NCBI GenBank assembly: GCA_000004985.1
Contig: GG738848.1
Direction: 5' to 3' (one strand)
From: Naegleria gruberi
Taxonomy: Eukaryota
Length of the DNA: 64,000 nucleotides
The notes under the pieces are model-generated. The model saw only the letters and a list, made by a program, of their open reading frames with translations. It did not search any database and was not told the origin of the DNA. The number at the start of each line of letters is the position of its first letter. Within the stretch, counting starts at the first letter, position 1. A program made the translations under genes and the position numbers. Shown here piece after piece: positions 32,139 to 47,426 of this stretch.

Positions 32139-34097
32139 TTAAGGAAGTGAACGAATCAATTCTTCTCTATTTACATTATATTGAGGGAATTCCTTATTTT
32201 CCTCTCTGACGAATTGATCAGTAGCAGTTGAACTTGCATACAAATTTGGAGTTGGTTCATTAATTGCACTTTCCATTCTATTCGATTCTTCTTCAATCAA
32301 ATCTGAAACATTTTCAGAAATTCCTTCAACTCTCTCAACAAATTCCAACTTTAATTCCTCACCCAAACTAGACAATGGTCCAGCACCTATCATCAAGTGT
32401 GCAAATTCTCCCAAACCAACCTTTTCTTTCATTTGATATTCTTCTGGCAATTTAACTAAATATTTCGAAAGTAAATGAACAATGAAAACTTTCTGTTCGA
32501 GAATGGAAAATTTGGAACCGAGACAACTTCTAGCTCCCAAACCGAATGGAAGGAAGGAGCATATTGGATGGTGACTTGAAACGTTTTCTTCTTCATGTCT
32601 TTCAGTACTGCTATAATTGGCAAATCTTTCAGGATAGAATTCGTCTGATTTCTCACCCCAAAGTTCAGTATTGTAATGAATGGATTTGATAGAGAGGGCA
32701 ATAGATTGGTCCTTTGAGATCTTTACTCCATCAATAATGTGAGACTTTTTGGAAACTCTATTTAACACGCCAACTGGAGGTGAAATTCTCAAATTTTCAT
32801 TAATGACACAATCTAAATATGGAAGTTTGTGAAGAGTTGCCAAATCATCTAATTGTTGAATGATAAATTCACAATATTTTCCTTCTCTAATCTTGAATCG
32901 ATCTGGATAGGCCTCTTTCAATTCCTTATATAGAGTGTCTTGAACTCTTTCATTCAATGCCAAATTAAGTAAAAGGAATGAAAGTGCATCTGCTGTGGTA
33001 GCATGTCCAGCAAGGAATAAAAGTAAAGTATTGTCTTTCAAGTTCTTGTCAGAGATTTTCAATGGTTCAACTTGTTCTTCTTCCTCTTCGTGAGCTGGCT
33101 CAAAGTTTGATGGGATGGCAGGTTTAGTTTCGCTTGGTTTAGGTTCATGGAATGCTTGGTTAGCTTCAATCATTAAATCCATGGCACTTTCCATGCTAGG
33201 ATGGACTACATCAATGACTCTTCTATCAACATGTTCGATTCTCTTCTTTTCAATGATGGAAGAAACAAATTCGTGCATAATTCGAATAGATTTTTCCATT
33301 CTGTGATTGTCAATAATTGGCAAGCTGGAATAAAGTTTACCACCGAGCATTCTTTCCCAACTATTGATATTCTTAAATACGAATCTGAATGCTTGAAGAA
33401 CTTTCTCATTTTGGGACGAATCTTGTGATTGACTTGTATCTGAAAGACGGAAATTTGGATCAAGATAATTAAAATCACAATCAAGAGCTGATTCACCAAT
33501 TACATCGAGTGCCATTCTACTGATAACATCTTTAATCTTGAGAGGAAACTTATTCTCAGATTGACCTTCTTTCGAATACTGTTGCAAATTAGAAACACAA
33601 TAATTGACCTTTTCTGAAAAGATATTCCAATACTTGTCTACATGTTGGAATGGAGGATTCAAAACACTTCTATTCACTTTCCATTCAGTGCCATTCATGA
33701 AAACTAAACTCTTTCCAATAAATTCTTCTTGCTGTGGAGTCCTTAATTTGCCATCCTTTGGAAAATCTTTCCAATTATCAATGAGAATGGATTTGGCAGC
33801 ATGTGCACTCGAGAATACAACAATTGGCATGTATCCTCTATAGAAAAAGACGAAAGGTTCATTATTAAACTTGTTTCTACTCAATTCGAATAGTTTTTCA
33901 CCAAGTGGTTTCTTACTCTCATAGAAAATTAATTTGATAGATTGCCAGATGGATAAATGATTCTTGAGTGCTTTTCTCGTTCTTACATCTCTAACGTAGG
34001 CATAGCAAATAGCTTCATAGAATTTTACTAAAAATAGTACTGCTATTGGGAAGACCACAAACACATTAAATACTGTTGACCAATTGATAATCATCAT
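32139..34097 (-). CDS. Cytochrome P450 monooxygenase (652 aa, single exon)
   Basis: Heme-binding signature PFGLGARSCLG. ExxR motif ENLR. PERF-like FYPERF. N-terminal membrane anchor. Confidence 0.85.
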   Translation of the reverse strand: MMIINWSTVFNVFVVFPIAVLFLVKFYEAICYAYVRDVRTRKALKNHLSIWQSIKLIFYESKKPLGEKLFELSRNKFNNEPFVFFYRGYMPIVVFSSAHAAKSILIDNWKDFPKDGKLRTPQQEEFIGKSLVFMNGTEWKVNRSVLNPPFQHVDKYWNIFSEKVNYCVSNLQQYSKEGQSENKFPLKIKDVISRMALDVIGESALDCDFNYLDPNFRLSDTSQSQDSSQNEKVLQAFRFVFKNINSWERMLGGKLYSSLPIIDNHRMEKSIRIMHEFVSSIIEKKRIEHVDRRVIDVVHPSMESAMDLMIEANQAFHEPKPSETKPAIPSNFEPAHEEEEEQVEPLKISDKNLKDNTLLLFLAGHATTADALSFLLLNLALNERVQDTLYKELKEAYPDRFKIREGKYCEFIIQQLDDLATLHKLPYLDCVINENLRISPPVGVLNRVSKKSHIIDGVKISKDQSIALSIKSIHYNTELWGEKSDEFYPERFANYSSTERHEEENVSSHHPICSFLPFGLGARSCLGSKFSILEQKVFIVHLLSKYLVKLPEEYQMKEKVGLGEFAHLMIGAGPLSSLGEELKLEFVERVEGISENVSDLIEEESNRMESAINEPTPNLYASSTATDQFVREENKEFPQYNVNREELIRSLP

Positions 34098-34243: not shown

Positions 34244-34855
34244 TTAATATTTCAAAAATACTCCGAAAGGGAACGCTAATAGGGATAATAATGCAACATG
34301 TCTTTTAGCATTATCCCTTCCAATCACACTCAAATATAAAATTACAATACAAATCAACTCTATCGATGCAATAAACCATCCAAACATGCAAAACCAAACA
34401 AAATTACTCAAAATCATTAATAAACTCGTCTTTTCTCTCATAAACATTTGATCTTTGATAAATCCAATCGATCGTTCCTCAATTGACTTGTATTTTCTGT
34501 AGGGTTTCGATTTCTTTACGTTGAATAGAAGAAACTTGGCAATTTTCATCAATTGTAACGAACAAGGTAAACAAATCAATAGACAAGATAATATCCAACA
34601 CACAGAACACAAACCAAAAAAGATGAATGTAATAAATCCTAATCCTAAACTCAACCATCGACAATCCACTTGTGCATCTTGTTTTTGATGTTCTTCTTGT
34701 TGTTGTTGTTCTTTTTCTGACGATGGTTGAGGATCTTTTGTGTGATATTCAATGGTGGTGGACATTTCCTGCAATTCAATCTTGTCTTCATCAACATCCA
34801 TCTCCGAAGAAGAGGCATGTTGATCAACGTGAGCTGTATCTGATGATGCGGCCAT
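34244..34855 (-). CDS. Small multi-pass membrane protein (203 aa), function unknown
   Basis: Acidic Gln/Glu-rich N-terminus followed by 3-4 hydrophobic helices. ORF only. Confidence 0.4.
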   Translation of the reverse strand: MAASSDTAHVDQHASSSEMDVDEDKIELQEMSTTIEYHTKDPQPSSEKEQQQQEEHQKQDAQVDCRWLSLGLGFITFIFFGLCSVCWILSCLLICLPCSLQLMKIAKFLLFNVKKSKPYRKYKSIEERSIGFIKDQMFMREKTSLLMILSNFVWFCMFGWFIASIELICIVILYLSVIGRDNAKRHVALLSLLAFPFGVFLKY

Positions 34856-34973: not shown

Positions 34974-37900
34974 CTAGAGTCGTAATGAATCTTCATCATC
35001 GACTCGTTCTGCATTTTCAGAATGTTCTGAGGGTTCTGATTCGAGCATTCCCATTTCCATTCTCATGTTTTTCACGAGCATTGTTTCATCTTCTTCATTG
35101 AGGCGTGCTCTCAAGTGGTACATGTCATTGAGTAGGTAACCAAGCATGGATCCTTTTCCTTTAACTTCAAGCTTTCGTTCCTCAAATTCCATTTGTAAAT
35201 GTTTAACTCTTTCGTAGGTTGATTGTGATACTTGAATTCTTCCCTCCTCTGAATTTGATTCCATTCTTGAAGCAACATTGATGGTATCTCCCCATAGATC
35301 GAATGCAAACTTTTTGAAACCAATTACACCACCAACAACTTGACCAGTATTGATACCAATTCTGATTCATAATTGAAATTAATGAACAGTAATAAGAAAA
35401 CTAATAATTATTAACAAACTACTTACCTAACATTCAATTGTTGAGTAGAAATTGGTTTTGGATCATCTCTGCAAAATATTTGAAGAGCTTCTTTGTATCG
35501 ATTTGTGTTAATGTCTCTCACCACTGAGAAAGTTTCCATAGCAAATTGGAGAACAACTTCTGGGTGAGTCACTCCTCCATCCAATCCACCACAACAAAAG
35601 TAAGAATCACCTATAGTTTTGATCTTTTCTATATTGTACTTTTCAGTCAACTTATCAAATCCGTTCACAACATTTCCAAGTAACAAGACAACGTCTTGAG
35701 GGTTGAGAATAGAAGAAATTTCTGTAAATCCAATCATGTCCGTAAATAAACAAGTAATGTCAGGAAGCTTCTCTGCAATAAATGTTTCTCCCTAGTATTA
35801 TTATTATTATTATTAAATATTGAAAAACTAGTATAACAACTTACATTCATCAATCTTTGGGCAATCTTGGTTGGGAGAATATTTCTCAATAAATTTTCAG
35901 AAGTCTTTTTTTCTTCAGCAAGTGCAATTGCTTGCTTTCTCTCAAGTGTTATATCCTTAATGATAAATAAAAAAAAAACTTTCGAATCAATCATGGCCCA
36001 CGATATATTCACTTTGGCTGGAAAACATGATCCATTCTTCTTCACACAATCCAATTCTAAAGTTTCTCCTCTGATTGTAGTACTGGCTGTTATAGAAGTC
36101 ATGGCTTCAAAGATATTGCCAAGCTTTTCCTGACTTGCCGTATCAAATAAATTGAAAACAGACAAACCAACAACGTCATTGACATTTCTCAAGAATAAAA
36201 GTCTTGCTGCAGGGTTGTAAATCTCAATATCAAAATCACTGTTGCAGTACAACACTCCATCTACTGCAGTGTTGAAAATACTCTTTACCTTATCCTTTTC
36301 TTCTTCTTTTTGTTGTTGACTGCTCTTATTCTTCTTACTCTTATTTATCTGATTGTAGAGAACGAAGTCACGAATTTCATCTTTGGCATCCAAATATTCA
36401 ACTTTAACATAGTTCAACATCATTCTCAAAGTTTGAAATTCATTAAAGTGAGCATCAAGTGATAGGAACAATAAATATGCAGTGAATGGAATTGTTAGTA
36501 AACCAAGAACTCCAAATATAATGCTAACCAGAGACGACGTATTGTTTTGAAGTGCCTCAATATAAATATTCAAAAATATTTCAATATCATCAGTAAGCTG
36601 GCTACAAATTGAGTATATTCCTGTGTAAAATTCACTAAATGTTTTGAGAGGGTCTACTGTAGTTGTTCCAAATACTTGATTAACTATTGACAACTCAACC
36701 AAGAACAAATTCACCATATCATTCAAACTGGAACAGGCTGCATGAGAAGTTGAGGTTCTATTGGAGCAGTTTCCAGTACCGCTTATAATTTCATCAACCT
36801 CAGAAAACATGCCTATGAGTGGTTTTTCACCATTTTCCTTGTCTCCATATATCAGCTTGTTCCACAACACATTCAAATTCAACCCAATCTCACCAATGCC
36901 ATCGTGCAGTTTTACAAGATCTGCATTGGAAAGTAGTGCAGGGTTGTTTGCAGTGGTATTCGGAAGTAACTTGAATGTTATCAATTCCCCAATACTAAAC
37001 ACTCCTTTCTGTGCATAATTTGAAATTTTTACAGACTTGGCAATACTCTTCATAATTAATTCTGATTCTGAAGAAGTGCTGAAAGCCTCCAGGTAAAAAA
37101 TAGATACACAGAGTGCGGATAAAGCTATCAATAATATAGAGAGGAATGTGAAAGTATAGGATGGATTGCTAAGGTAATCAGATATTGAGCTGCCACTGTC
37201 GACTGATTCTTGATTTTTGGTTGTCAATTGTTGGTAGAGTTTGATAATAACATCTTTTGGAATGTTCCTCTCCACCAGTTTGATTGCTTGTTTAAGTGAA
37301 CGCACAACTACGAAAAACATAACAATAGAAAATGCAAACACCATTAACATTGCAATCAGGCAAGATATGTAGAAATATCTAAATATCAATTCCGTTTCAT
37401 AAACAGTGGCATAATTTCTATCAACAATGTGTAAGCAGTATTGTTGGTAATTTTGAAGAATGGTATCTCTATTGAGCCACAAGTACATGAACTTAAAGTT
37501 GGTAACTGTGGCATTAAACTCTTCAAGACCGTACTTTTTGAATTCTCTTGCTATTTGAATTAGAAGATTAGTGTTGAGGGCAATTGAGGAATTAGATACA
37601 TCTACACCAGTAAATTCGTCATTATTAGTATCTAAAATATGTGGAATGTTAAACGTATGGCTGTCTGAAGAATAATCATGGAAAATATCATTAGTAAAGG
37701 AGCCATCAAGAGCCATTTCCTCTAAAACTTTGAGACCGTGAATAACTTTGTCCAATCTTTCCTTGTGAATATGGTTGTAGCTAGTGTAGTTGTAAATTCC
37801 TTTTGCTTCCAAAGATAAAGTACTAAGTTTTGTGTTGCCATCAATAGTTGCCAAGACTTGAAACATTTGCTCTATTCTATTTTCAATCAATAAATATGAA

Positions 37901-40242
37901 ATATCAACACTAGGAAGACAATTAGCAATAATTGTAGGCATATCTTTTGTGGAAGCCACAAGAGCATAATATCCAAATCCAAAACAAGCAACAAATGTTA
38001 AAAAAGAAACTACTACAAATATCAGTACCACTATATACGTTGCCTTGTTATCCCCTGAGGTAGCCAAGGCCATTCTGAACAGACCCTCCTTCCTTACTTC
38101 TGGATCTTCTGAAGCTTCATTAATCAAGTTCAATATTTCAGGAGTCTCTTCCGTCATTTCTTTTGTGGTAGAGTTTTCTGCAGTAAGTTTGTTAGTGCTC
38201 TCCATGACAGACTTTCTAAATGATATGAGTTTTGATGCTGTTGACATGGAAGACAAGGGGCTTTTGGCATTAGAGGGAACAGTTGATGCTGGGCTTTTCA
38301 CTGGTGATGAGATGGTTCCTATTACTTTTCCTTCCTTCCTTTCTTCTTCATCTTCAATCTCATTGGCTTCTTGATACAACTCTTGAGCTCTGATATTGTT
38401 AAATATTACCAGTTCAAGAAATCGTGCATATAATCTTAGAACTGATTTATCGCCACCAAAATCTTTCATCAAATTCTCAAAGGTTATTTCTGACTCAACA
38501 GTTAGTTGGGTAATTCTTCTGTTGATTGTAATAACAGTACCAAAATTGACCATTTCATTGGTCATTTCCTTCCAAAGCGCTTTGTGCCAAGATAGGATTG
38601 TATGGTGTTGTCTTTCCAAGTTGGCTAAAATATGCTTCACATCCACAAAACTAATACCAGAACCTTCACCTGATTTTTTGTGCAGTAAGGTTTCCATTTC
38701 TTTCAATTTTTCTTTCAAAATAAATTCTGTTATAATATTGAGTTTGTGTCTCTTGATTTTCTTCAATAAAGCGAGAGAATATTCATAACAGTTGGTGCCT
38801 TCATTCCAGAAATAAGCGGTTGTCATTGCTGCAGCAACGATATTTTCAGGATAGGAGAAGGAACGATGTTGAGCCACTCCTTTGATGAATGAGATGCAAA
38901 TCTCATTGTCACTTAGACCCAAAGCATCATTTAAAAGTTTCGTCTTTCTACTTGATAATCTAAAGAAAATGTATAATTGTCTAATTCTTTTTTGATCTTC
39001 CAATTCCTTGAAGAAAGAGTAACTTTCTCTTTCAAATAAATGCCTCAATTCTGATATTTGTTCCTCGCTGGCAGTATATTCGACTCCATTTTCCAAAAGT
39101 TTTACCAATGAATTCTCCAAGCAACCAATGAAACCCCTCCTTATGGAATAATATGATACACCAAGATAAATGGTCATTGCTGCAAAACCAATAAAAAATC
39201 CAATTATTGCCAGTCCAATTGATGTACTAATCATTCCTAGTCCAATTTCTAAATCTTGTTTTTGATTAATGAAAGAGGAAATGAGAGGACCTAAACTTGT
39301 ACCAATTTTAGAAAAGACAATACCACTCATAAAACCATTCTCTGATAGAGAATAGTGAGGTATGAGGAAGAAAATAGATGGAACCAAAGTTGTAGAGAGA
39401 ACAATATGAACTATAGCCCTCACAAATACCATATCATTTGGAATAGCATACATGACAATTACTTGCAACTGAGATGTTGCCATAAAGTGAGCAATAAAGA
39501 ATGGACTCTCTGAAATGAATACAGATTTGCTTTTGAGATGGGTATTTGTAATGATGAGATTATACATTGCAGTTACTGGTACCAGTACAACTGCCATAAC
39601 AATACAAGTAACCAAAAGTGCAATATTAGTTGGTGAGTAGCACATTTTGGTTGGAAATCTAGAAAGAGCATACTGATCTATTGTGTATCCTTCAAAGAAC
39701 TTCTTTCCTGACACTCTATCACAATCCACAAATGATGTCAGCAAGTACGGTATTGTAAGATGACCAAAAAAGCAAGCAAAAGCAACAATCTTCAACAAGG
39801 TTCTAAAGGTTTTCATATTCCTACTAGCTGTCATGGCTGCCTTTGCAGTTGTAATAAACAAAACCAAAGCAGCAAGAATAAACACCATACAAACAACTGT
39901 TATTGCAATCATTGCCTCATACGTAATCAAATCTAAGGAAAAAGTAATTGGATAATTCAAAGCTTTTGAAATCCATAATCCATATTCTCCCCATCCATAA
40001 TCACCCATTACTGATATGCTAACGGCTCCATAACATGAATATAATACAACGAGCAAGTTGAGGATGAAATTCTTCCATGATTTCTGAGGTGCTTTGTCAG
40101 TCATGACAATTATTCTATTCAGCAAGGCATCCTTAACTTTGACAATATTCTGTCTCCTCGATAAATAACCTGAAGATGAGGAGGAGCTACTAGAATTATG
40201 AGAAGAACTCTGATAATCGGAGTGATGCCTAAAGTCAATCAT
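34974..40242 (-). CDS. Polytopic membrane PAS-domain class III adenylyl cyclase, paralogue B (~1750 aa). Exons on the complement: 40242..35845, 35791..35427, 35361..34974
   Basis: Same architecture as paralogue A: N-terminal TM block, internal TM segments, a PAS domain (VDGVLYCNSDFDIEIYNPAARLLF...KKNGSCFPAKVNISWAMI), then the cyclase. The cyclase motifs are LFTDMIGFT, EKIKTIGDSYFCCGGL, IGINTGQVVGGVIG, KKFAFDLWG and DTINVASRMES. Introns are 53 and 65 nt with GTAAGT donors. It lacks the two micro-exons of copy A. Confidence 0.85.
35796..35815. repeat. (TTA)6 microsatellite inside intron 1 of cyclase paralogue B
   Basis: tattattattattattatta. Confidence 0.9.
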
Positions 40243-40730: not shown

Positions 40731-43700
40731 ATGTCATCCTCAAATCTTGCTGAAACTGATGCAGCAGCAAGTGACACATCAAAATCATCGTCATTAACAT
40801 CTAACCTCCTTCCTCTCCTGGACCAACTTTCTCAATATGCCCTCGATCTCTCACAAAACAAAATCTTTACCACCTCACTCTGTGATTACATTCAAAGTGC
40901 CTCACAACAAGTTTTCCTCTATGAAAAACTTGTTCAAACCAATCCAGATAATCCCTTCATTGCAACAATGAATTATTCCGATGTTCAACGTGTAGCCGAT
41001 GCCCTTCATGAGGCTTGCATCTACTTGATGGAAGTTCTCGGCAAGGATCCACAATTCTCTCGAAAGGAAGACGCTCAAAACGATTACATGTTTGAGCGGG
41101 AAGATCGTGAACAAGTGGGAATGATGAAGGTGCGTACCTTAAATATCATTGAAACGACGCGAAAAGCCAATACCAACTCGCTCAACGAGGTGCAAAAGAG
41201 AAAAAATTTACAGGCGCAACAAGTCTTTCAATTCGATTTGCACGCTCGTTTGTATAACTCAAAGAATGGTGTTGTTCAACCTGAGGAATTGACCAATGAT
41301 TCGAGAACATTCCACACCATCGGAAATGAAAATAGTGGAGGAAGAGATTCATTGATGAAAAAATTGTTTCACGTCTTGAATAATCAAATTGCTCAACAGA
41401 AGGAACATCAGGCTCAACAACAAGCTTTGGCTGAGAAGGGAAAGGCTGTTATTAGTGCAGCTGATAGTTTGGCTAGAAATTCTGCTCAGAGATTAAAGGT
41501 TATTCTTGTGAATGGTGTTACTGGTGTTGGTAAAAGTAATTTCTGTAATACCATTTGTAGAGAATTATGTGATCAAAATCCTGATACCATTCAAAGAAAA
41601 TTCCATTTGAGATTGAGAGCAAATACTAAATTTTCTCTCACTGTAAGTTTTCAAAGATATTCACAAGTTTTAAATTTATTCTATTTCTAATAACTATTGT
41701 ACTTAACTGATAATGAACTGATTGGATAATTTATTGAATTGTAATAATACTATTTTGGAATTTTTCAAAAATTAGACAACAGAAGCCATGCAATATGTTG
41801 TTCAAACATGGCACGTTGGACCATTGCCAATTCATGAAAAACAACTTCGTGAATTGTATCAACAATCTTTTATTGGTGTGACAACAATTCTCTATTTGGA
41901 AGATCCAAGTAATATCCATCAAATTTTGGCTCTCTTACCAAATATTAAATATTCTCCATCCAGTCGTGCATTTGTTGTCATTAGTTCTAGATCACAATTG
42001 AAATTGGAATTTGATAGATTCTCAAAGGGTTATATTGACCTTGTAACTGACTCTGGTGTCAAACAAATTAGAGATAGAATTGTTGAGCTCGATACTGCCA
42101 ATACTGAAGGTAGTATTGCTGCTGATCAACATGATTTGGATAATTTTTCTGATCACGAATCTGACTTTGAAAGTGATGATGAAAGTAGTGGAGAAAGTGA
42201 TGAGGAAGAAAAGCCAACCAAAGCAGGTAAAAATGACAAGTATCACATTAAAAAGACTCCACAACAGAAAAAGATGGAAAAGGAACTCAAATCAATCTTT
42301 GGTAGTACCAAGAAGAAGACATTTGCCATTCACATTGGTATCAAGGATGACGATGAAAAAATTCCAGTCTTCCAAAGACACTTTGATGTTATTTATTGTA
42401 CATTGGAACCACTAAGTTTTGATGGAGGTGCTGAAATGATGCAACACCTCAACCCACAACTCCAAAGTGACGAGACAAGATCTGTCTCTGCTTTGGCTGA
42501 AAATTTACCAATATTTATCAAAGTTCTCACCAGATCTCAAATGCTCTATGGGGGTGACCTGTCTGATTACTCATTTGCTATTGGTTCATTCATGGATAAG
42601 TATGGCAACACTGATTTCCCACAATTGAGAAAACTTTGTCAAGGTTTCTTTATTGGTATCTGTGAAAAGTGGGACAAACAACTCAGAAATTTTGCACTCA
42701 AACTCTCAATCTTCCCATTCTCTTTTGATGCTGTCAGTGTTGGACTCGTATTGGAAACTCCTCTCAATGAAACATTACGCTACCTCCAATATTTGATCTT
42801 CTTTGGTTTGATTGTTCAGTGTGAACCTGGTAGATTTAGTATGCATGACTTGGTCAGAGATACCTTCCAAATTTACAAGGATGAAGAAATGAGCGATAGA
42901 GATCCACTTAAGAATGATATTGCCGAATGTGAGGAAAGATATGTCCAACACTATTTCAACTTGTTGAGATTATACAATATGCAACATGAATACTCTGGTA
43001 TTATTTACATGCCTGGTCCTGAAAGGTATGACATGGATATTGAAAATATGAAATATGTTGTTGAATTTTTGAAAGATTTGGGCAATACTGACTATGTTGA
43101 TGCTCTTAACACTGGTAGATATATTTTCAGAAATTCAATCTATGCTATTGATAGAGGTCGTCTCTACACATTCCTTGAGAGCAGTGCCGCAGTCGATAAA
43201 CTCCCTGATGATTTTGGAAAGGCCAACTTTTTCGAAGGTTTTGCCATGATTTACTTTGATTTGATGGATCACAAGAATGCCTACATTAAGGCAAAGAAGG
43301 CCCTCGATTTATTAGAGAATGCTTGTATTTTGAGTGATGTACCAAGTGACGAACTCAAACAATTACCAGTACTTCTTCTTGCTGGTGAAATTGCCTTTAG
43401 ACAAAATCAACAAGATATTGCTCTCAGATTCTTTGAAAAGATGGTTACTCTTGCCAATAAGTATGCTCACGACTGGCAAAAGATTACAGTGGAAAAGAGT
43501 AGTGATCCGTTTGCTATCGTACAAGGTTTTGAGGAAAATGAAGTAATTGTCAAGGATATTTTTATTGGAAAGTCTTATATTTGCCAAGCCAAGATTTACA
43601 TGCAAAGAGGTGATGTCAAGAATGGTAAAAAGTTCTTTGAAAGAGGTCTCACCATTATGCAACGTATTTACCATCGTTACCATCCATTTATCAGTGATGC

Positions 43701-45093
43701 TTTTGCTTCCTATGCTCAACTTCTTCGTGATTTCAAATCAAGTCAGTACTATGAAGACATTTGCAAGTACTATAAGGATGCTATTGAAATTGATACCAAG
43801 ATTTTTGGTGAAGATTCATTCTCTGTTTGTGAAAAGTTGGATGGCTATGCTGTTGCTCTCTTGATGCAAAACAATTACGAAGCTGCCGAACCAATTTTCC
43901 AAAAGACCCTCATTACTAGAAAGAGGTTCTTTGGTGAGAATGACATTACTGTCAGTTCAACCCATAACAACTTGGCTGTCTGTTTAAAGCACTTGAGAAA
44001 GGCCGATGAAGCCAAGATTCATTATGAAGCCTCTCTCAATATTTTGACTGACTTGTTTGGTCCAAATGACTCTAGAGTTGCTACTATCAAGACCAATGTT
44101 GCCAAACTAAAGTTGGAATTCTCAGAATCATATGAAGACGCTGAAAAGACTTTCCAAGAAGCTCTTGAAACATTGAAAGATGAGAATATCCATGAAAAGG
44201 GACGTCAAATGGCCAGTACATTGAACAGTTTGGGTGATGCTTCTCGTCAAAGGCAAGACTATACAAAGGCTCTCGAATACTATGAACAAGCTATGGCTAT
44301 ATTGGAAGAAGTTAAAAAGAAGGCCAATACTGAGAGTACTGAATATTCTGAAGTTATTTCTGAGAGTGTGAAAATTCTCCTCAGTATGTCCAACTTGCAC
44401 TACGACAAACAAGAGTACAAACAAGCTGAAGAATTATTGGAACGTGGTTTGGAAATTATTCAGAAACATCTTGGTGGCGAGAACCATCCTCTCTATCCAA
44501 ACTATCTCAGTTTGGCAGCCAATACCAAACTTAACAAGAAGGATTATTCAGGCGCTGAAGAATACTATCATAAGGTTATTGAAATGAAGATTAAGCAAAA
44601 GTTACCTCCAACAGGTATTATGCCAACAAATCAATCTTTGGCTGTCTGTTTGGATCGTCAAGGTAAATATGCTGAAGCTATTGAACAATACCAAAAGGTC
44701 TTGAACATTCTCAATGAAAGCTTTAAGGATGATTTGGATAAGCAAATCTCAGTCATTAGAGCTATTGCAAGTGCCAGTACAAAGAAGGAACCAAAGGATT
44801 TTGCTACTGCTGAAAAGTACTTTGCCGATGTTGAAAAGTTAATTGTTAAAAAGACTGGCTCTGACAATAATATTGAATATGGTGAAATTATGAGTGATTT
44901 GGGAGCTTGTAGAATTCAATTACAAAAGTATGAAGATGCCATTCTGAACTTTGCAACCTGTGAAAGAATCTTTTCTGAATTCTTTGGAGACAATCATGAC
45001 AAGACCATTACTGCCAGAGAAAATGTTCAAAACTTGAGAACTCTTATGCAACAACAAAACATCAAGCAAGGATGCCCATGTACATTAATGTAA
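40731..45093 (+). CDS. STAND-class P-loop NTPase (NB-ARC/NACHT-like) with a long C-terminal kinesin-light-chain-type TPR array. Exons 40731..41642 and 41776..45093, ~1410 aa
   Basis: Walker A ILVNGVTGVGKSNF lies at the end of exon 1. Phase-0 GTAAGT donor at 41643 and TTAG acceptor at 41775 (133-nt intron). Exon 2 carries a Walker-B-like TTILYLEDPS and then more than 12 TPR-like repeats (A..Y..AL.I......G..HP). An uncharacterised ~250-aa N-terminal domain precedes the P-loop. Confidence 0.75.
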
Positions 45094-45397: not shown

Positions 45398-47426
45398 ATG
45401 TTCAAGAAGATCAACACTCCACAACTCATCAACAAGACCGCTTCCACTGGTGCTCGTTTGTTCTCTACCAAGATGAACAAGCAAAGTGTCAAGAAGGTAC
45501 CAATGATCATCAATGGTGAAAAGAGAATTTCCCAATCCAAGGAATGGTACGAAATTCACAATCCAGCCACCAATGAAGTCATTGCTATGGTCCCACAATC
45601 AACTGATGCTGAAATGGCTGAAGCTGTTCAAAACTCAAAGCAAGCCTTTGGTGAATGGAGAGATTGGAGTGTTTCTCGTAGAGTTAGAGTCTTGTACAAA
45701 CTCAGACAAATGCTCGAAGATAATACTCAAGAATTGGCTCAAATGATCACTGAAGAACAAGGTAAAACTTTGAAGGATGCTGAAGGAGACATTTTCCGTG
45801 GTATTGAAGTTGTTGAACATGCCTGCAATATGTCTGTTCTCCAAATGGGTGATACTACTGAAAACATTGCCAAGCACATTGATATTTACAGTTATAAGCA
45901 ACCTTTGGGTGTTACTGCTGGTATTTGTCCATTCAACTTCCCGTAAGTGTTTTTATTCACCATGTGTTTTAATTCTTATTCTAATATCCAATGATGATGA
46001 TGATTTGTAAATTTTAAATTATTATAATTTAACGAATTGATGATGATCAAATATGCATTATGCAAACAATTAAAATGCATTATCAAATAATGATCTATCT
46101 GATGATGATCCTATTTCTATTTGGCTTGTTTGGTGATTCTTTCCCTTCATCATCATGACCAAATATATTTTCATCATGATGCTAACCGACAAAATATTGG
46201 ACCGATAATATTATCTCCTTGATGATTCACACTATTATCTATATTTGTGTATAATTATTATCCATCCAACAAACAATTATTTGTTGTTAAATAATAATAA
46301 TTTTAACACACACTTGTTGATCAACAACAAATTCACACAACAATCAATATCATCATCATCCTGCTTGTGAATACATAATAATAGAGCCATGATTCCATTG
46401 TGGATGTTCCCAATGGCTGTTGCTACTGGTAATACTATGGTTTTGAAGCCATCTGAACGTGACCCAACTACTGGTGTCAGAATTGTTGAAATGGCTTTGG
46501 AAGCTGGTTTGCCAAAGGGTGTTGTCAACGTTATTCATGGTAAGAAGCAAACTGTTGACTTTATCTGTGATGCTCCAGATATCAAGGCCATCTCATTCGT
46601 TGGTGGTAACACTGCTGGTGAATACATTTATGCTCGTGGTACTGGTAATGGTAAACGTGTCCAAGCTAACTTGGGTGCCAAGAATCATGCTGTCGTTTTG
46701 CCAGATGCTAGAAAGGAAGATACTATTAATGCCTTGTGTGGTGCTGCTTTTGGCGCTGCTGGTCAAAGATGTATGGCTTTAACTACTGCCATTTTGGTTG
46801 GTGAAGCTAAGGCATGGCTTCCAGAAATTGTTGCCAAGGCCAAGACTTATAAGGTTAATGTTGGTTCTGATCCAACTGCTGATGTTGGTCCATTGATTTC
46901 ACCTCAATCCAAGACTCGTGTTGAAAGCTTGATTGCTTCTGCTCAAAAGGAAGGTGCCAAGATTGATTTGGATGGTCGTGGTGTCGTTGTTAAGGGTTAT
47001 GAAACTGGTAACTTTGTTGGTCCAACCATCATTTCAGGTGTTAAGAATGTTCACACTTGTTATAAGGAAGAAATCTTTGGTCCAGTTATGCTCATCATGA
47101 CTGCTGAAAATTTGGATGAAGCTATTCAAATTATCAACTCTAATCCATACGGTAATGGTACTGCCATCTTTACTAGATCTGGTCCAGCTGCTCGTAAATT
47201 CCAATTCGAAGTTGATGCTGGTCAAATTGGTATTAACTTGCCAATTCCAGTTCCTCCACCATTCTTCTCATTCACTGGTTCAAGAGCTTCAATTAGAGGT
47301 GATTTGAACTTCTATGGTAAGGGTGCTGTTCAATTCTACACTCAAACTAAGACTATCATGTCTAACTGGAGAGAAGATGAAAGTGGTATGAGCTTTGGTA
47401 CTGTCATGCCAACTTATAAGAAGTAA
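45398..47426 (+). CDS. Methylmalonate-semialdehyde dehydrogenase (acylating), mitochondrial (ALDH6 family). Exons 45398..45942 and 46385..47426
   Basis: ICPFNFP|[27 protein letters not shown] spans the exon join. It is collinear with animal MMSDH, including the catalytic Cys in GQRCMAL and the Glu region. Phase-2 GTAAGT donor with a 442-nt intron. Mitochondrial presequence. Confidence 0.9.

Follow-up and report, generated by a model that had tools for sequence, protein, structure and literature searches.

What kind of protein is encoded between positions 40731 and 45093 of a 64,000-nucleotide stretch of Naegleria gruberi DNA (contig GG738848.1 of assembly GCA_000004985.1; this whole stretch is referred to as the window), and how might that protein work? 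A prediction made from the sequence alone (the original prediction) had described the locus as a gene for a STAND NTPase fused to tetratricopeptide repeats (TPRs), with an uncharacterized N-terminal domain and an implied role as an immune receptor. Based on the analyses described here, we consider it reasonably probable that the gene encodes a STAND switch of the NB-ARC type that is restricted to Heterolobosea, that combines an N-terminal four-helix bundle, a nucleotide-binding oligomerization domain (NOD) split by an insert, an HD2-like domain, TPRs of the kinesin light chain (KLC) type, and a C-terminal CaaX box, and that responds to a conserved ligand following the logic of Apaf-1.

The locus is a real two-exon gene of N. 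gruberi. The DNA of the window is AT-rich and eukaryotic (GC content, ~34%), and the gene is organized as follows.

40731 to 41642, plus strand: exon 1, with the ATG at 40731; 304 codons (residues 1 to 304) for the N-terminal domain, a linker, and the first part of the NOD, in which Walker A is located
41643 to 41775, plus strand: intron of 133 nt, GTAAGT...TTAG, phase 0
41776 to 45093, plus strand: exon 2 (residues 305 to 1409, stop codon at 45091 to 45093) for the rest of the NOD, the HD2-like domain, the TPRs, and the CaaX tail

The spliced product of 1409 aa is identical in 1409/1409 positions to a protein of N. gruberi NEG-M (XP_002681900.1 / EFC49156.1 / UniProt D2V1F3), and because of this 100% identity, the gene model is settled. 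In the public annotation, XP_002681900.1 appears only as a "TPR repeat domain-containing protein," which our analysis corrects. The protein is colinear over its full length with FDP41_009508 of N. fowleri (1393 aa, 79% identity) and with ABK040_006712 of Willaertia magna (1370 aa, 62% identity). Moreover, exon 1 read-through translations from three Naegleria-type assemblies (P0004, P0005, and P0006) all break after ...KFSLT, supporting that the intron position is conserved. The original prediction had exon 1 right, with its start at 40731 and its 304 codons, and the donor GTAAGT follows at 41643; the 1100 aa that it gave for the entire protein correspond to exon 2, which by itself contributes 1105 aa. 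Similarly, the fusion of a STAND NTPase to TPRs held, while the domain boundaries and the protein length had to be redrawn.

Profile comparisons support that the NOD is a divergent member of the NB-ARC clade of STAND proteins (the Apaf-1/R-protein/AfsR class) rather than a NACHT domain and that it spans the intron. The following motifs could be assigned.

Residues ~203 to 212: GR helix GGRDSLMKKL at the start of the NOD
41514 to 41537, plus strand: Walker A/P-loop GVTGVGKS (residues 262 to 269)
From residue 302: RNBS-A-like SLTTTEAMQYV
41884 to 41907, plus strand: Walker B TILYLEDP (residues 341 to 348)
41968 to 41994, plus strand: sensor-1/RNBS-B-like strand AFVVISSRS (residues 369 to 377)
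42385 to 42528, plus strand: strand 5 DVIYCTLEPLS (residues 508 to 518) and the start of ARC1 with the GLPL-like LAENLPIFIKVL (residues 544 to 555)
42832 to 42864, plus strand: winged-helix MHD motif RFSMHDLVRDT (residues 657 to 667, MHD at 660 to 662)

Walker A, which was placed at the very end of exon 1 in the original prediction, is indeed present in this exon and lies 35 codons before its end. The pattern GxxGxGK[ST] is kept in all members of the family, and E346 and D347 of Walker B, R376 of the sensor-1 strand, and H661 and D662 of the MHD motif are invariant; every member for which the relevant region is available has Walker A, the Walker B ED pair, the sensor-1 Arg, and the His-Asp pair of the MHD motif. 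Given this conservation of the entire set of catalytic and switch residues, ATPase activity of the protein is very likely.

The closest relatives outside the family are bacterial NB-ARC-TPR proteins. A family NOD profile matched two divergent eukaryotic metagenome homologues (P0007 and P0008, 35-36% identity) and, using hmmsearch on a database of 5.8 billion sequences, the bacterial ATP-binding/TPR proteins P0009 (from Streptomyces) and P0010 with E values of 1.5e-4 and 2.7e-4, respectively. P0009 and P0010 themselves score above the Pfam gathering threshold for NB-ARC (33.9 and 31.3 bits, respectively, versus 23.5). When the NODs of eight family members, with inserts removed, were compared to P0009/P0010 using hhalign, the alignment had a probability of 99.5% and an E value of 3.2e-22 and comprised 297 columns, beginning at the GR motif and ending at the MHD motif. 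The GGR..helix aligns with vGRe.EL of bacterial NB-ARC proteins, while hhalign paired Walker B with their hhhLDD/MDN, the sensor-1 strand with VVVTSRR/ILVTSRW, and DVIYCTLEPLS and LAENLPIFIKVL with LDVLP..DA and CGhLPLA, respectively, such that ENLPIF (residues 546 to 551) represents a degenerate GLPL. The MHD motif aligned to RFSMHDLLRE in P0009, RYRLHDLVRD in P0010, and RYRFHDLVR in AfsR. A family-only profile also matched the SARP-NB-ARC-TPR regulator AfsR (PDB 8k60) with an E value of 0.0023 in two colinear stretches that cover the nucleotide-binding domain (NBD) and the winged-helix-MHD region. For structural comparisons, the NOD was modeled using AlphaFold2 on residues 1 to 789 of the N. 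fowleri orthologue. In a Foldseek search of the PDB with this low-confidence model, the top 15 matches were all NB-ARC-class STAND proteins, including Apaf-1 (1z6t, E value of 2e-4), ZAR1, NRC2/3, the STAND-TPR protein 6mfv, Roq1, and RPP1, but with TM-scores of <0.2; MalT was at rank 17, and no NACHT protein was among the matches listed.

Other classes of NTPases were considered and rejected. In Pfam searches with the full protein and with the NOD, native or with the insert deleted, only TPR families and P-loop-level matches were obtained. NACHT scored 14.6-17.3 bits against a cutoff of 26.7, and over the P-loop only. KAP_NTPase (PF07693) scored 13.5-17.4 bits on native sequences against a cutoff of 20, and its 22.4 bits on the artificial insert-deleted construct, the only one above this cutoff, covered profile positions 1 to 87 of 293, the third that contains the P-loop; moreover, the NBD insert described below is acidic/basic and predicted to be disordered, not hydrophobic as in a KAP-type transmembrane insertion. 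A PDB sequence search with a three-sequence NOD profile gave no significant match, and PADLOC models of defense systems matched the P-loop or generic TPRs with no match to a defense STAND protein beyond these. Overall, profile homology bears out the STAND assignment of the original prediction and specifies it as the NB-ARC type.

Two elements in the NOD set the family apart from its bacterial relatives.

41379 to 41489, plus strand: Gln-rich linker from the GR helix to strand 1 (residues 217 to 253), poorly conserved
42013 to 42384, plus strand: NBD insert of ~120 aa from the sensor-1 strand to strand 5 (LEPLS) (residues 384 to 507), predicted to be disordered

The linker is absent or short in Acrasis and the metagenome homologues. 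Gln makes up 9.6% of residues 1 to 260 versus 6.0% overall and is concentrated in the linker; thus, what had been described as a Gln-rich N-terminal region is a mild enrichment that resides mainly in residues 217 to 253. The NBD insert, which the original prediction overlooked, contains an acidic Ser/Asp/Glu run (FSDHESDFESDDE...) followed by a Lys-rich run (KKTPQQKKMEKELK..KKKT), and its residues 387 to 499 (113 aa) include 17 Lys, 16 Asp, 12 Glu, and 11 Ser. All members of the family have it, bacterial NB-ARC relatives do not, and the predicted local distance difference test score (pLDDT) is <50 over the equivalent residues 363 to 488 of the N. fowleri protein. This insert could be a regulatory element (CK2-type phosphorylation), a polybasic membrane-binding element, or a nuclear localization signal.

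The second feature overlooked in the original prediction is found at the very C terminus.

45070 to 45090, plus strand: Cys-rich tail GCPCTLM (residues 1403 to 1409), with the CaaX box CTLM at 1406 to 1409 and an extra Cys at 1404

All eight full-length members (8/8) end in C-a-a-X, i.e., CTLM, CLIL, CIVM, CLIL, CVIC, CSLM, CVIA, and CVIA, and an extra Cys is present upstream in each of the 8 tails. Specifically, the tails are GCPCTLM in N. gruberi, GCPCLIL in N. fowleri and a third species, GCCCCIVM in Willaertia, and CCTGCVIC in Acrasis, while those of metagenomic heterolobosean-like contigs are CCGGCSLM, CCGGCLSGCVIA, and CCGGCCVIA. The Cys at −4 is invariant, whereas identity is 14-50% over the remainder of the tail and ~32-79% between the proteins overall. 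This invariance in spite of the divergent tails and proteins argues for selection for prenylation, and the adjacent Cys residues are probably palmitoylated. Thus, the conserved CaaX tail predicts a membrane location for this NB-ARC-TPR protein. No report on proteins combining CaaX and NB-ARC was found in the literature searched, and nothing relevant was found using the gene identifiers. For N. fowleri, protein farnesyltransferase has been assessed as a drug target (PMC7560193).

The N-terminal domain is new in sequence and a generic four-helix bundle in fold. Its elements are as follows.

40803 to 41198, plus strand: four-helix bundle (residues ~25 to 156), with helices at 26-37, 45-70, 82-104, and 126-156 as predicted by AlphaFold2
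41046 to 41102, plus strand: best-conserved N-terminal motif DPQFSRKEDAQNDYMFERE (residues 106 to 124), mostly in the loop predicted to connect helices 3 and 4
41226 to 41378, plus strand: pre-P-loop segment FQFD..NGVxxPEExxNxPRTFHxIGNExxGGRxxL (residues 166 to 216), with (nearly) invariant G180, H195, and R205

The AlphaFold2 model of residues 1 to 220 of the N. gruberi protein (me61c3640f8f6), which was based on a ten-sequence alignment, has a predicted template modeling score (pTM) of 0.71 and a pLDDT of mostly ~80-95 in the helices, in agreement with the helical character noted in the original prediction. The peptide singled out there as conserved looking, DALHEACIYLMEVLG, is present at residues 90 to 104, and this DALHEAC... 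peptide forms helix 3; however, it is only moderately conserved, and the best-conserved motif is DPQFSRKEDAQNDYMFERE. The family pattern of the latter is DPxxxRxxDxQN(D/E)YhFERE, with Q116, Y119, F121, and E124 being nearly invariant among nine divergent members, and the center of the loop (residues 116 to 120) has a pLDDT of <50. The second-best conserved element, NGVxxPEExxNxPRTFHxIGNExxGGR (residues 179 to 205), leads into the NOD. In a HMMER search of 1.84 billion representative proteins with a five-sequence profile of residues 1 to 220, we obtained 7 matches at E≤0.001; all are members or fragments of the same family, including a 1302-aa protein of Acrasis kona (GCA_026419775.2) and a 1308-aa metagenomic protein, and none of these representatives has the domain in another architecture or as a stand-alone protein. 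Pfam searches with ten N-terminal sequences gave no consistent match at E≤10, PDB sequence searches with three-sequence and ten-sequence profiles gave no significant match, and a Foldseek search of the PDB with the N-terminal model gave nothing significant (best E value of 0.41). Thus, the region lacks a recognizable domain, as originally described. The death fold (CARD/PYD/DD/DED, with a six-helix Greek key), for which the original prediction had suggested a check, was rejected.

A helical bundle at this position raises the possibility that the protein is an executioner NLR of the MLKL/HeLo/coiled-coil (CC) type, in which the four-helix bundle, once activated, would enter the membrane where the protein is already held by its CaaX tail and permeabilize this membrane, resulting in a resistosome- or necroptosis-like death in a discoban protist. 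The bundle is confidently modeled and is N-terminal to NB-ARC, the position of the plant CC/CC-R and fungal HeLo domains, and the conserved lipid-anchor signal would place the protein at a membrane. A comparison of the bundle gave 8.2 for a HeLo_like_N protein, 7.7 for AtMLKL3, 7.4 for the CC-R of NRG1.1, 7.4 for a wheat CNL, and 7.0 for ZAR1; this resemblance of the model to MLKL/HeLo/CC bundles is generic, and a relationship is possible. However, the Foldseek search with this model was not significant, none of 10 members has a Pfam match of the HeLo, HeLo_like_N, Rx_N, RPW8, or MLKL type, no MADA-like motif was seen by eye at the N terminus, and the domain never occurs on its own or in a different context among the 1.84 billion representatives. 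We regard membrane permeabilization by the bundle as unlikely. That heteroloboseans have a single, ancient, prenyl-anchored, resistosome-like death switch, with an MLKL/HeLo/CC-like executioner bundle that is convergent or has diverged beyond sequence recognition, also appears improbable to us. If true, Discoba would join the lineages with four-helix-bundle death machinery of the NLR type, and anchoring by a C-terminal lipid would be a new design principle.

Between the winged helix and the CaaX tail, two helical regions follow.

42904 to 43233, plus strand: helical HD2/ARC3-like domain (residues 681 to 790) between the winged helix and the TPRs, based on the helices of model m4f4a5e721cc2
43234 to 45048, plus strand: KLC-type TPR array (residues ~791 to 1395) of ~600 residues

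The array matches Pfam TPR_12 in 8 stretches (E value of 2.7e-55, 184.9 bits) and TPR_10 (E value of 3.8e-29, 100.3 bits), and crystal structures of KLC1/KLC2 match the TPR region with E values of ~1e-15. The KLC-type TPRs proposed for exon 2 are therefore present, but only from residue ~791 to 1395 rather than throughout this exon, the first ~485 residues of which form Walker B, sensor 1, the insert, ARC1, the winged helix with MHD, and the HD2-like domain. TPR_NPHP3 (PF24885) scored 60.0 bits against a cutoff of 100, and based on this score and the NB-ARC type of the NOD, membership in the nephrocystin-3 family was rejected.

These TPRs could alternatively be part of a constitutive lipid-anchored scaffold that, like nephrocystin-3 or KLC, docks cargo or signaling proteins on a membrane or the flagellar apparatus. 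The KLC type of the repeats together with the sub-threshold TPR_NPHP3 score, the conserved lipid-anchor signal, and the housekeeping-level conservation with no second copy found would all fit such a function. By contrast, the Walker A Lys, the Walker B ED pair, the sensor-1 Arg, and the MHD His-Asp pair are kept across members that are ~32% identical, which argues for a working nucleotide switch. Moreover, TPR_NPHP3 did not reach its threshold, and the family is present in Acrasis kona, which is not known to have a flagellate stage. We therefore consider a mere scaffold to be very unlikely.

The family, with eight full-length relatives, was found in Naegleria, Willaertia, Acrasis, and metagenomes; it appears to be restricted to Heterolobosea and to be conserved between Naegleria, among them the pathogen N. 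fowleri, and Acrasis. In word-index homology searches, either TPR matches dominated the output or only orthologues were obtained. Homologues with 32-37% identity, the same architecture, and a CaaX tail are also encoded on JGI metagenome contigs (L002, 7608-10263; L001, 3386-7457; L003, 19-3378; and L006, 3001-6927), where prokaryotic gene callers had split them. Their introns differ from that of the Naegleria gene, with two short ones in the N-terminal region in L002 and none over the region covered in L003 and L006. These contigs probably derive from uncultured heteroloboseans.

Between N. gruberi and N. fowleri, identity is 87% in the NBD, 85% in HD2, 83% in the TPRs, 75% in ARC1 and the winged helix, 72% in the insert, and 63% in the four-helix bundle, and the TPR region is 65% identical to that of Willaertia. 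With a TPR identity that is equal to or above that of other domains, there is no sign of diversifying selection. Following the suggestion in the original prediction to count paralogues, we found none in the 90%-clustered or 50%-clustered databases and none in the window by tblastn with the protein.

These observations bear on the immune function implied in the original prediction. According to this explanation, the protein is an innate immune receptor of the plant R-protein or fungal NLR kind, the TPRs of which recognize microbial ligands, e.g., from Legionella-like bacteria or giant viruses of amoebae. In favor of it, NB-ARC-TPR proteins have been proposed as candidate pattern-recognition receptors in Acanthamoeba, Dictyostelium, brown algae, fungi, and Willaertia (PMC7285305, PMC3341825, PMC4986451), and the nearest relatives outside the family are bacterial NB-ARC-TPR proteins. 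However, neither the N-terminal domain nor the NOD has a paralogue in the clustered databases or the window, the TPRs show the high conservation just described, and the PADLOC models of defense STAND proteins match the P-loop only. In addition, NLR effector modules are typically shuffled, whereas this N-terminal domain is confined to one architecture. Because no paralogue was found and the TPRs (83%) are as conserved as the ATPase (87%) between the two Naegleria species, the case for an immune receptor is weakened, and we doubt that it applies. For the same reasons, and following the logic of Apaf-1, a conserved endogenous ligand or a generic signal is more likely than a fast-evolving pathogen effector.

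For the conserved-ligand switch that we favor, the sequence analyses establish the gene model, the order of the domains, the homology to NB-ARC proteins, the restriction of the N-terminal domain to this family, and the conservation of the CaaX box, whereas the steps from prenylation onward are inferred, those that follow ligand binding by analogy with the established STAND mechanism of Apaf-1, plant NLRs, and AfsR/MalT. The protein would be farnesylated or geranylgeranylated at the CaaX Cys and probably palmitoylated on a neighboring Cys, and this lipid tail would hold it on the cytosolic face of a membrane. At rest, it would be an ADP-bound monomer locked by the MHD motif. Binding of the ligand to the TPR array would release autoinhibition and permit exchange of ADP for ATP, upon which the NODs would oligomerize and cluster the N-terminal four-helix bundles as the output. 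Once clustered, the bundles might serve to recruit a partner, or they might themselves act on the membrane.

Several points weigh against this proposal. First, the Pfam NB-ARC profile (PF00931) gave no match at E≤10 to the native or the insert-deleted NOD, such that the link to this class is transitive via P0009/P0010; the Gln-rich linker and the ~120-aa insert explain part of this failure. Second, the NOD model is weak (mean pLDDT of 56, pTM of 0.33), and its fold matches have TM-scores of <0.2. Third, the copy number is based on database searches of limited sensitivity and on one 64-kb window. Fourth, the CaaX variant of Acrasis, CVIC, is atypical. Finally, we infer the Apaf-1-like endogenous ligand from conservation alone.

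The NB-ARC-TPR architecture as such is already known, from bacteria, fungi, brown algae, and amoebae (PMC4986451, PMC3341825, PMC7285305), and the gene is in GenBank, where it is under-annotated. The novelty is that a conserved NLR-like protein without a detected paralogue combines an N-terminal domain restricted to Heterolobosea with a split NBD and a conserved signal for lipid anchoring. Thus, a classical NB-ARC switch here carries three unusual features, i.e., an N-terminal domain found only in this family, a CaaX signal, and a charged insert in the ATPase. As candidate sensors, NB-ARC-TPR proteins are widespread, but except in plants, animals, fungi, and a few bacteria, almost none of them has a known output. 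Because the family is conserved and no paralogue was found, the gene would offer a tractable one-gene entry point to the role of STAND switches in Discoba. It also bears on the question of whether a death or signaling module consisting of a helical bundle and NB-ARC predates plants, animals, and fungi or recurs outside them.

The neighborhood of the gene in the window was also analyzed.

32139 to 34097 and 34244 to 34855, minus strand: a gene for a cytochrome P450 (PF00067, E value of 1e-65) and one for a small YccF-type (PF03733) protein, respectively
34974 to 40242, minus strand: upstream neighbor, a large multi-exon gene for a receptor-type cyclase
45398 to 47426, plus strand: downstream neighbor, an aldehyde dehydrogenase gene (PF00171) with exons at 45398 to 45946 and 46389 to 47426

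PF03733 is an inner-membrane domain, and the hydrophobic stretches of the small protein were judged by eye. In the upstream cyclase gene, an open reading frame of 1502 aa encodes TmcB-type TPRs, a PAS domain, and putative transmembrane stretches (hydrophobic, judged by eye), while two further short open reading frames match the catalytic domain of adenylate/guanylate cyclases (PF00211). The N. fowleri orthologue likewise has an aldehyde dehydrogenase gene on its downstream side (L004, 16990-19130), supporting partial synteny between the two species.

Comparison with known systems places the Naegleria protein among several classes. Bacterial NB-ARC-TPR proteins, such as P0009 of Streptomyces and AfsR (PDB 8k60/8jke), share a homologous NOD from the GR motif to the MHD motif followed by TPRs but have neither the N-terminal four-helix bundle and the CaaX tail nor the two additional NOD elements, i.e., the Gln-rich linker and the insert of ~120 aa in the NBD. 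AfsR is a transcription factor with an N-terminal DNA-binding SARP domain, in place of which the Naegleria protein has the four-helix bundle. Plant CC-NLRs and helper NLRs (ZAR1, NRC2/3, and NRG1) and fungal HeLo-NB-ARC/NACHT-TPR NLRs likewise have a helical bundle N-terminal to the NTPase, and ZAR1 and NRC proteins are among the top fold matches of the NOD, at the TM-scores of <0.2 given above; fungal NLRs often carry TPRs (PMC4986451). However, the Naegleria N-terminal domain has no profile link to Rx_N, RPW8, or HeLo, the sensor of plant NLRs consists of leucine-rich repeats rather than TPRs, and the Naegleria protein adds a C-terminal CaaX box. Moreover, plant and fungal NLRs are expanded and variable, whereas the Naegleria gene is conserved, with no paralogue found.

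The KLC-type TPR array is shared with NPHP3 and the kinesin light chains. NPHP3 combines a P-loop domain with KLC-like TPRs and is targeted to membranes and cilia in a lipidation-dependent manner, but its lipid modification is N-myristoylation rather than prenylation, and the NTPase of NPHP3 belongs to another, NACHT-like type. Finally, Apaf-1 resembles the Naegleria protein in its NB-ARC NOD, being the top structural match (1z6t, with the caveat of a TM-score of <0.2), in the HD2-like helical domain followed by a repeat sensor, and in the N-terminal helical bundle, which in Apaf-1 is the output domain. Apaf-1 is encoded by a single-copy gene, comparable to the Naegleria gene, for which no paralogue was found, and its ligand is conserved and endogenous. 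The two proteins differ in that Apaf-1 has a six-helix CARD and WD40 propellers and lacks a lipid anchor and an NBD insert, while the Naegleria protein has a four-helix bundle, TPRs, a CaaX signal, and the insert and is not matched by the Pfam NB-ARC profile.

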